This document shows positions 1,268 through 10,404 of a stretch of 10,767 nucleotides of DNA, in pieces. Every line of letters begins with the position of its first letter. Position 1 is the first letter of the stretch. Source of the stretch: a virus (Duplodnaviria; Heunggongvirae; Uroviricota; Caudoviricetes); the IMG/VR virus record IMGVR_UViG_2579779035_000009. The stretch is one strand, 5' to 3'. Under the pieces are notes generated by a model. It searched no databases. It saw only the letters and a program-made list of their open reading frames with translations, and was not told the DNA's origin. Made by a program: the position numbers and the translations under genes.

Positions 1268-1798
1268 TTACTTACTTTGTTCTGGTTTCTCTTCATTCTT
1301 ATTGTGCACTTCCACTTTGGGTAATTTATTAAAAACCAGATTTTCTTTTTCAACCAGAGTCATGACTTCTTTGGTGATATCAGCTGACTCGTTATGCGCA
1401 AGCACAACACCTGAAGACAATACGGCAATATTTTTAGGATTGTCTTTTCTCCATGTGCCTATGGCATTATCTATCGCACGGGATAACACCATTTTTGCGC
1501 TATTTTCCTCAATAACATATTGTCGTTCCAGTTTTTGTCTGGCATCAAGAAGCAGCGCCTCTTTATTCGCGTTATCTGCGAATGTTTTTTGCGCATCCTC
1601 ATATCCTTTTTCAAGAATACTCTTAACCTCATTCAGATGCTTTTTGGCCATGTCTCCGGCGGTAGACTGATTATAAATAGCATCGATATTAACAACTGCA
1701 ATTTCTTTTGACTTTTTCATATAAAAAACACCAGTAAGTACAATCAGCAACAGCAGCACTACTGCATTAACAACAGAAAATTTCATTACAGAACTCAT
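1268..1798 (-). CDS. Skp/OmpH-family-like periplasmic chaperone paralog with N-terminal hydrophobic anchor or uncleaved signal (176 aa)
   Basis: N-terminus MSSVMKFSVVNAVVLLLLIVLTGVFYMKK is one roughly 20-residue hydrophobic helix with no obvious AXA cleavage site. After it, KEIAVVNIDAIYNQ resembles the Skp N-terminal strand (IAIVNxxxxxxQ), followed by a K/E/Q/A-rich helical middle. The C-terminal AHNESADITKEVMTLVEKE resembles the Skp C-terminal motif (AYNSSDVKDITADVLKQVK, recalled from memory). AGGG Shine-Dalgarno 8 nt upstream of the ATG; 47 bp downstream of the autotransporter stop on the same strand. Confidence 0.55.
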   Translation of the reverse strand: MSSVMKFSVVNAVVLLLLIVLTGVFYMKKSKEIAVVNIDAIYNQSTAGDMAKKHLNEVKSILEKGYEDAQKTFADNANKEALLLDARQKLERQYVIEENSAKMVLSRAIDNAIGTWRKDNPKNIAVLSSGVVLAHNESADITKEVMTLVEKENLVFNKLPKVEVHNKNEEKPEQSK

Positions 1799-1815
1799 TA
1801 TGACAACCCTGAGGT

Positions 1816-1836
1816 GGCAGGAGGGCCCCTCCCGCC
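1816..1836 (-). promoter_or_regulatory. GC-rich intercistronic stem-loop between autotransporter stop and chaperone RBS
   Basis: GGCAGGAGGG (1816-1825) pairs with CCCTCCCGCC (1827-1836). As minus-strand RNA this gives up to about 7-9 G-C-rich pairs including one G-U wobble. No U-tract follows on the transcribed strand, so it is not a canonical intrinsic terminator. Confidence 0.4.
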
Positions 1837-9759: not shown

Positions 9760-9783
9760 AACACTAATACTCTTGAACGTACA

Positions 9784-10404
9784 TTATAATTGAATATTTT
9801 CACTAATAAGGGAACGCGGAATATTTATAAATTGATGTAAACGTTTTACCCCGAGTTTATCCATAGCTCTACGACGATGCGTCCACACAGTCTTACTGGA
9901 TATACCCAAGGTGTTCGAGATCCATGCAATATCTTTTCCTTCCTTGGTATATATAAAGATACTTTTCTCCCTCGGGGATAATTGTCGTTCTAAAAAAGAA
10001 ACTTTATGATTCGCGCGAATATTTTTTTTGCACCTCCAGCCATTGATAAATTTATCTATATAGAAACAAAATTGCTCTGCTGTTAATTTCCACGGTATGA
10101 AAGGTATGCCTTTATTACTAACTACACCATTATCCCCCCATGCCAGGCACGGAATATTGACAGGCTGGCTTTTTAGCCATTGGTGAATGAAATACAGTGA
10201 GCGTATACAGGTAGTAGAATCATTATCAGGGAATACAGGTAACAACAACGATTGCTCATCCCGAAAGCAAGATGTGCCAAAATCACGAATCAGAGAAGAA
10301 TAGTCGTCCACAGCGATGACTTTCACGTACGAAAAACCCCGCCAACACATACTCTTAATTGCTTGAATTATAAAAATATTTTTTGTCGTCGTAATCAAAA
10401 CCAT
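9784..10404 (-). CDS. LuxR/GerE-family helix-turn-helix transcriptional regulator (206 aa), small stand-alone type
   Basis: C-terminal LSPREKSIFIYTKEGKDIAWISNTLGISSKTVWTHRRRAMDKLGV matches the GerE/LuxR HTH pattern (L-S/T-x-R-E ... I-A ... L-x-I-S-x-K-T-V-x-x-H ... KLG). The N-terminal roughly 140 aa is Cys-rich with no obvious receiver-domain acid pocket. AGGAAA Shine-Dalgarno 7-8 nt upstream of the ATG at 10404. The gene ends 24 bp before the autotransporter start on the same strand and is low-GC (about 34% in a 100-nt sample). Confidence 0.7.
   Translation of the reverse strand: MVLITTTKNIFIIQAIKSMCWRGFSYVKVIAVDDYSSLIRDFGTSCFRDEQSLLLPVFPDNDSTTCIRSLYFIHQWLKSQPVNIPCLAWGDNGVVSNKGIPFIPWKLTAEQFCFYIDKFINGWRCKKNIRANHKVSFLERQLSPREKSIFIYTKEGKDIAWISNTLGISSKTVWTHRRRAMDKLGVKRLHQFINIPRSLISENIQL

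Follow-up and report, generated by a model that had tools for sequence, protein, structure and literature searches.

A putatively membrane-tethered Skp-like paralogue paired with giant autotransporters in the phase-variable ipuS–ipuR–upaE island of Escherichia coli and in divergent relatives

Classical (type Va) autotransporters are taught as self-contained, relying on housekeeping chaperones, the beta-barrel assembly machinery (BAM) and the translocation and assembly module (TAM) only. Accessory genes adjoining type V autotransporter genes are known, namely those of the glycosyltransferases Aah and TibC, the lipoprotein SadB (for SadA), TpgA (for AtaA) and the marT–fidL–misL locus of Salmonella. 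The gene analyzed here resembles them in adjoining an autotransporter gene, and fidL and SadB are likewise small envelope proteins. None of these partners is, to our knowledge, a Skp homologue, and SadB and TpgA serve trimeric (type Vc) adhesins. The present analysis concerns a Skp-like gene located directly downstream of the giant autotransporter gene upaE in the virus record IMGVR_UViG_2579779035_000009; the whole stretch of 10,767 nt is referred to as the window, and all coordinates are those of the window unless a locus is named.

The closest described system is the ipuS–ipuR–upaE locus of strain CFT073, in which ipuS is a 260-bp invertible element between ipuA and ipuR (Battaglioli et al. 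2018; PMC6083910). In the ON orientation a sigma-70-type promoter inside ipuS reads into the 'two-gene operon' ipuR–upaE, and UpaE, a 271-kDa surface adhesin, is made and kept on the cell surface; no phenotype was found for ipuR (PMC6083910). The window contains the same elements: 7-bp inverted repeats, an element of ~260 bp, the truncation of IpuA in the ON state, ipuR, and a gene for a 271-kDa UpaE. The paper counts two genes in the operon and nowhere mentions a third one (PMC6083910).

The DNA identity of the window to E. coli RefSeq chromosomes is 99.9%, and the window is the argW-linked island of E. coli with ipuS in the ON orientation, ipuR, upaE and a third gene. Three co-oriented open reading frames of 176, 2637 and 206 aa are located on the minus strand, with gaps of 47 bp between upaE and the Skp-like gene and 24 bp between ipuR and upaE. 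The initial annotation had described exactly this compact module, and its assignment of the three products to a LuxR-type regulator, a giant autotransporter and a Skp-like protein was borne out. In matching genomes the NCBI Prokaryotic Genome Annotation Pipeline (PGAP) names the products 'phase-variable autotransporter adhesin UpaE', 'helix-turn-helix transcriptional regulator', IpuA and IpuB; the third gene is named 'OmpH family outer membrane protein', or in some genomes 'membrane protein' or 'hypothetical protein'. Accordingly, the gene order is new only in part: the switch, the regulator and the adhesin are already known, and the third gene carries a PGAP label. What appears to be new is that large autotransporters are repeatedly paired with a putatively tethered Skp paralogue, the function of which is at this stage a proposal. 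Literature searches combining Skp-like or OmpH proteins with autotransporters, SapC with autotransporters, and presumed CFT073 locus tags returned no description of such a partner, which does not disprove that one exists.

The product of the third gene is a divergent Skp homologue, as judged from profile alignment and a predicted structure. Against the Pfam OmpH family (PF03938) it scores 27.5 bits (E 4e-6), below the gathering cutoff of 32.4, and its relatives score 26–34 bits, around the cutoff. No meaningful match was obtained in the NCBIfam search, and a plain hidden Markov model search of the PDB sequences with the family profile did not return Skp, which is detected by profile–profile and fold comparison alone. 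In hhalign, a profile of 25 sequences aligned with E. coli K-12 Skp end to end over 140 columns (85% probability, E 6e-6), including the C-terminal D-I-T motif. The AlphaFold2 (AF2) monomer model, built from an alignment of 73 sequences, has a mean predicted local distance difference test (pLDDT) score of 86.7 and contains, in order, an N-terminal helix (residues 9–27), a strand, a long helical hairpin (46–72 and 79–119) and a second strand; both elements of the Skp fold, the beta body and the long helical hairpin, are present within residues 32–150. Membership in the OmpH family, proposed initially, thus stands at the level of profile and fold comparison and does not at the Pfam cutoff.

Skp itself (HlpA/OmpH; PDB 1SG2 and 1U2M) is a soluble periplasmic holdase with the same small beta body and long alpha-helical hairpin, but identity to the Skp-like protein is only 16–20%. 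The signal peptide of Skp is replaced by an uncleaved-looking anchor, and the canonical skp gene lies between bamA and lpxD (in K-12, skp precedes lpxD), whereas the Skp-like gene adjoins an autotransporter gene. The features of a housekeeping Skp, namely a cleavable signal peptide, a soluble basic protein and the bamA–lpxD location, were accordingly not found. The top structural matches include SkpA, a component of the type 9 secretion extended translocon (PDB 8GL8). It too has the Skp fold and is dedicated to one secretion system, but this is another system in another phylum.

The 21-residue N-terminal segment is strongly hydrophobic (mean hydropathy 2.67 over 19 residues versus 1.17 for Skp) and lacks an evident cleavage site. 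The C-terminus carries an extension of ~25 aa with a conserved F..LP.V motif. A lipobox was found in 53 of the 103 cluster representatives of the family, with Asp at position +2 in 25 of the 53 and Asn in 10. Asp at +2 is the Lol-avoidance signal for retention in the inner membrane in Enterobacteria. Since 25 of the 53 lipobox proteins have Asp at this position, tethering to the inner membrane looks like a recurrent trait of the family, judging by these N-termini. As a separate observation, the counts of Asp and Asn at +2 (representatives P0027–P0173) are far above expectation for outer-membrane lipoproteins.

An exhaustive profile search returned 217 relatives at E<=1e-3, most of them of 160–200 aa. 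Close relatives were found only in Escherichia and Salmonella diarizonae. When 185,579 species-representative genomes were scanned, one alignment confirmed nothing and another only Buttiauxella ferragutiae; reference genomes thus rarely carry a member of the close family. The Skp-like gene is under purifying selection (dN/dS 0.14–0.41).

Relatives for the neighbourhood survey were sampled according to the length of their contigs, without regard to gene context. In every survey look-up that returned DNA, a large autotransporter gene adjoins the family member. This adjacency was found in six sequence subfamilies (Escherichia/Salmonella, a plasmid-like contig, Yersinia ruckeri, Klebsiella aerogenes, Pseudomonas/Buttiauxella and Desulfovibrio), across which the Skp-like proteins are only 20–45% identical; the autotransporters range from 900 to >3100 aa, nearly all above 1600. 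The locus of S. diarizonae (L002) reads recombinase, GerE protein, 2632-aa autotransporter, a 47-bp gap and the Skp-like gene. The loci of Escherichia sp. and of an IncY P1-like phage-plasmid (L005, L025) read PapI/PapB, 2641-aa autotransporter, 47 bp, the Skp-like gene and a short GerE gene. An autotransporter gene followed by the Skp-like gene is also present in a metagenome contig (L007) and in a relaxase-bearing, plasmid-like contig (L017; protein P0027, 43% identity), where the autotransporter has at least 1894 aa and the gap is 57 bp. On a plasmid of Y. ruckeri (L023), a 1675-aa autotransporter is followed after 24 bp by a Skp-like lipoprotein and SapC, and in K. aerogenes (L040) a 2014-aa autotransporter is followed after 127 bp by an OmpH-like protein. 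Four loci of the Desulfovibrio type (L011–L015; 25–29% identity) contain a Pmp-like autotransporter of 900–1930 aa, the Skp-like gene and a DUF3467 gene. In Pseudomonas sp. OV226 (L018, L019) the order is SapC, Skp-like and then an ESPR/PATR autotransporter of at least 2648 aa, and in the Buttiauxella type (L020–L022) the Skp-like gene is divergent from an ESPR/PATR autotransporter of at least 2646 to >3108 aa.

The Skp-like gene is thus located downstream of, upstream of or divergently from autotransporters of two classes, AIDA/PATR and Pmp type. The beta-domains of the Desulfovibrio-type autotransporters are 68–78% identical to each other and have no BLAST similarity to that of UpaE. Autotransporter genes make up a fraction of a percent of a genome (an estimate, not a computed value). 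A chance origin of adjacency across subfamilies of 20–45% identity, three gene orders and two autotransporter classes is very unlikely. The specific link between the Skp-like paralogue and giant autotransporters, suggested in the initial annotation, thereby gains real support from six divergent subfamilies. Because other lineages have larger gaps or divergent genes, adjacency, and not co-transcription, is the conserved feature.

Several further observations concern these loci. A SapC-family gene (PF07277) adjoins the Skp-like gene in Y. ruckeri (L023, 6985–7827; L024, 9569–10039) and in Pseudomonas sp. OV226 (L018, 8846–9664) and could serve as an additional accessory gene. In every Desulfovibrio-type locus (L011–L016), a DUF3467 gene of 106–109 aa directly follows the Skp-like gene. 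On the Y. ruckeri plasmid p17Y0159.1 (L024, 2706–9372), S6-peptidase autotransporter genes of the type of the serine protease autotransporters of Enterobacteriaceae (SPATE) are followed, at a distance of ~1.6 kb, by a truncated Skp-like gene and a SapC gene. In the IncY P1-like phage-plasmid loci (pAPEC201602, L025, and L004–L006), the pair of autotransporter and Skp-like protein is 75–79% identical; the regulators there are of the PapI/PapB type, with a different phase-variation logic, and the pair is followed by the short GerE protein and phd/doc. Some distant members (L027; P0058) have a peptidoglycan-binding LysM domain fused at the C-terminus.

The adjacency and the fold suggest a chaperone role for the Skp-like protein. 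The explanation that we prefer, and to which we give about an even chance as a whole, is that the third gene encodes a dedicated, tethered Skp-like export helper for UpaE, read through from ipuS. Transcription would pass through a conserved hairpin without a U-tract into the third gene, the product of which would be a Skp/OmpH-fold protein with an N-terminal anchor in the inner membrane and a periplasmic Skp-like domain. Acting as a dedicated holdase, this protein would capture the unfolded passenger of ~2300 residues and the beta-domain leaving SecYEG, while the ESPR signal peptide delays release, and would limit aggregation or degradation until BAM/TAM takes over; it would raise efficiency and not be essential. 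PpiD and YfgM are inner-membrane-anchored periplasmic chaperones at SecYEG, which are housekeeping proteins and are not known to be linked to a client gene. The proposed principle is like theirs, an N-terminal-helix tether and chains received at the Sec exit, but the folds are unrelated. The wider proposal, that a widespread, overlooked family of inner-membrane-tethered Skp paralogues might be a dedicated type Va accessory factor for very long passengers (nearly all >1600 residues), acting at the Sec exit together with ESPR, is put forward tentatively and we regard it as somewhat doubtful.

As regards transcription of the third gene, a GC-rich stem-loop is located directly after the upaE stop codon. 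Each of the five enterobacterial-type loci has it (-20 to -23 kcal/mol, z-scores -2.4 to -4.6), and the plasmid-like contig L017 keeps an 11-bp stem of different sequence; the loci were folded one by one, MAFFT having put the L017 stem three columns out of register. This stable, conserved hairpin could terminate part or all of the transcription, which weighs against the export-helper explanation, and a complete two-gene operon with the third gene transcribed separately would agree with the 'two-gene operon' wording of PMC6083910 and with gaps of 127–449 bp or divergent genes in other lineages. However, no U-tract follows the stem-loop, the scan of the 47-bp gap revealed no consensus promoter, the 47-bp spacing is kept in four loci, and a more strongly structured region, likely the end of the transcription unit to judge from its predicted folding, is located after the third gene. 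We therefore consider separate transcription rather unlikely; it bears on transcription alone, and the two genes could be linked in function all the same. The RNA features fit read-through with attenuation or 3' stabilization, although they do not prove it.

As regards function, one point against a holdase dedicated to UpaE is that upaE alone, expressed from a plasmid, gives surface display, biofilm formation and binding of the extracellular matrix in K-12 (PMC6083910). The reverse primer of pUpaE matches window positions 1846–1866, so that the published clone ends at the upaE stop codon, and K-12 is without the island, hence without the Skp-like gene (matches in just 253 of 5426 genomes even in sensitive mode). 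Overexpressed UpaE is thus displayed without need of the Skp-like protein, which is at most a helper. Independent transcription together with dispensability of the chaperone for adhesin display had been named at the outset as evidence against the proposed system, and this applies in part: overexpressed UpaE is displayed and functional in K-12. Further points against the preferred explanation are the near-neutral soluble part (isoelectric point 7.0 versus 9.5 for the basic Skp), with which client binding may differ; the ambiguity of the positive-inside rule for the anchor (K6 on one side, KKSKE on the other); and the neighbourhoods of distant members. On two contigs (L030, L031) of a more distant, signal-peptide-type metagenome subfamily the order is Pirin, Skp-like, PepA, on two others the Skp-like gene is followed by passenger-like reading frames without Pfam matches, and one further member is a LysM fusion; the metagenome scan yielded only short contigs and a mixed picture of linkage, and a weak match on an Enterobacter plasmid lies 5 kb from an autotransporter gene. 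Moreover, joint transfer inflates the apparent conservation, as mobile elements carry many of the sampled loci.

Two other explanations draw on these points. The Skp-like protein may be tied functionally to the autotransporter without being an export holdase, through buffering of envelope stress, control of adhesin display or retention, or the handing of defective molecules to proteases. For this the evidence from adjacency is equal to that for the export helper; display of UpaE in K-12 independently of the protein, the neutral isoelectric point and the additional conserved C-terminal motif that set it apart from Skp, and the lineage-specific extra partners (SapC in Yersinia and Pseudomonas, DUF3467 in the Desulfovibrio type), which suggest a larger function, all agree with it. 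We nevertheless consider it unlikely, as the fold is that of a known holdase and no domain points to signalling or proteolysis. The gene might also be a spare Skp paralogue that mobile islands carry along, having a general function or none, and its place next to autotransporter genes would then be due to joint transfer: the loci are on the argW island, a P1-like phage-plasmid, IncFII plasmids and a relaxase-bearing contig, the gene occurs in only 4.7% of E. coli genomes, and it is dispensable in K-12. This is improbable, since the adjacency outlasts divergence to 20–30% identity, three gene orders and unrelated autotransporter classes (AIDA/PATR versus Pmp), the gene is under purifying selection, and the relatives were chosen independently of context. 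The export-helper explanation is the one retained here, at the strength given above.

Table 1. Positions of the genes, protein domains, switch elements and RNA structures in the window
Feature	Position	Strand	Basis or remark
Strongly structured 3' region after the Skp-like gene	1120..1267	-	fold z-score -5.45; putative role
Skp/OmpH-like paralogue, 176 aa, WP_000100045 family	1268..1798	-	profile alignment, AF2 fold
Predicted membrane anchor of the Skp-like protein, residues 7-27	1718-1780	-	hydropathy
GC-rich intercistronic stem-loop (core 1812-1839), directly after the upaE stop codon	1804..1848	-	conserved folding
upaE, 2637-aa classical (type Va) autotransporter adhesin	1846..9759	-	Pfam domains; PGAP name
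UpaE autotransporter beta-barrel domain, residues 2357-2615	1915..2691	-	Pfam
UpaE autochaperone domain AC_1, residues 2163-2267	2959..3273	-	Pfam
UpaE ESPR extended signal peptide, residues 1-43	9631..9759	-	Pfam
ipuR, 206-aa regulator	9784..10404	-	C-terminal GerE/LuxR-type helix-turn-helix, residues 141-193
Proximal inverted repeat of ipuS, 7 bp, TGACCCA	10493..10499	.	matches the 7-bp repeats of PMC6083910
ipuS invertible promoter element, ON, promoter facing ipuR	10500..10760	.	exact inversion of the L001 segment
Bidirectional terminator-like hairpin inside ipuS	10700..10720	.	putative role
Distal inverted repeat of ipuS, TGGGTCA, inside ipuA; the window ends here	10761..10767	.	sequence

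UpaE has the domains of a classical type Va autotransporter of the AIDA-I type, namely ESPR, PATR, AC_1 and the beta-domain, all above the Pfam cutoffs, and ends in ...KYIF with the aromatic residue F. In CFT073, upaE (L038, 11579–19530) is a frameshifted pseudogene in RefSeq, though the full 271-kDa protein was detected in that strain (PMC6083910). A plus-strand 'terminator' at 2855–2888 was rejected, as it is a coding Pro-Gln repeat linker of UpaE (PEPQPQPQ...); the length of this repeat may vary between strains.

The ipuS switch has the features of a fim-type invertible element: short inverted repeats, an element of ~260 bp, adjoining tyrosine recombinase genes (ipuA and ipuB, adjacent in L001) and two observed orientations. 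The best genome matches end at window position 10499. After inversion of the segment between TGACCCA and TGGGTCA, L001 is identical to window positions 10380–10767 with 0 mismatches. In the orientation of the window, IpuA is 11 residues shorter, with a change of K to F. Truncation of IpuA by 11 aa with the K-to-F change defines the ON state in PMC6083910, and ipuS of the window is therefore ON. The OFF junction was found in 237/237 complete RefSeq E. coli genomes with ipuR and the ON junction of the window in 0/237. The hairpin inside ipuS would come after the ipuA stop codon in the OFF orientation. In S. diarizonae (L002), the same inverted-repeat core is present at 842–855 and 1118–1131 (TACATTTTGACCCA / TGGGTCATTTTGTA), 262 nt apart, with one arm within the recombinase gene; Escherichia is thus not the only genus with an ipuS-like switch.

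The GerE helix-turn-helix domain of IpuR scores 45.8 bits in Pfam (cutoff 23.5), and residues 1–130 have no match in Pfam, NCBIfam or the PDB sequences. IpuR as a quorum-sensing LuxR protein or a response regulator was rejected, no match to an N-terminal autoinducer-binding or receiver domain being found. Similar to MatA/EcpR, a LuxR-type regulator whose gene opens the E. coli common pilus operon, IpuR is a protein of ~200 aa with only a C-terminal GerE helix-turn-helix and is encoded by the first gene of an adhesin operon; the two are 38% identical over 71 aa of this domain, with no similarity outside it. The ortholog in S. diarizonae is 65% identical and is kept there together with the invertase switch, while elsewhere the regulator is replaced by PapI/PapB or ToxR-like regulators. 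The regulator is exchangeable and is not part of the conserved unit, which consists of the autotransporter and the Skp-like protein. The initial idea of a fixed regulator–cargo–chaperone system is not upheld for the regulator: the same pair is under PapI/PapB on the P1-like phage-plasmid, and no ipuR phenotype was found (PMC6083910).

In matching genomes the island is flanked on the right by ipuA, ipuB and dsdC and on the left by torI and then the end of the CPS-53 prophage. Window positions 66–742 are the end of CPS-53/KpLE1, with a hypothetical gene (66–410) and torI (542–742). In K-12, torI directly adjoins dsdC without the island, the insertion point being between these genes, while in CFT073 the island abuts tRNA-Arg. 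Among 5426 E. coli genomes, the third gene was found in 253 (4.7%; sensitive mode), ipuR in 237 and the near-full window in 239. Searching the window for Rfam families and tRNA genes gave no match. The record of Escherichia phage GER2 (L039, MG710528.1) holds the entire island from ipuA through ipuR and upaE to the Skp-like gene at 447–10531; UpaE is split in two there and labelled 'long tail fiber proximal subunit', apparently a misannotation.

The third gene is present in CFT073 (97.7% identity), so that it was in place when the published ON phenotypes were recorded. The proposal affects how these phenotypes are read, as the third gene is probably co-expressed in the ipuS-ON strains. A practical limit is that display in K-12 proceeds without the partner. 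The proposal is directly testable, since locked-ON and locked-OFF CFT073 strains and UpaE antisera exist. With a tethered Skp paralogue linked to its client, the longest passengers would gain a periplasmic step of their own, and this would help to explain how unfolded chains of 2000–3000 residues cross the periplasm intact. If true, giant autotransporters held to be self-sufficient would be two-component systems.

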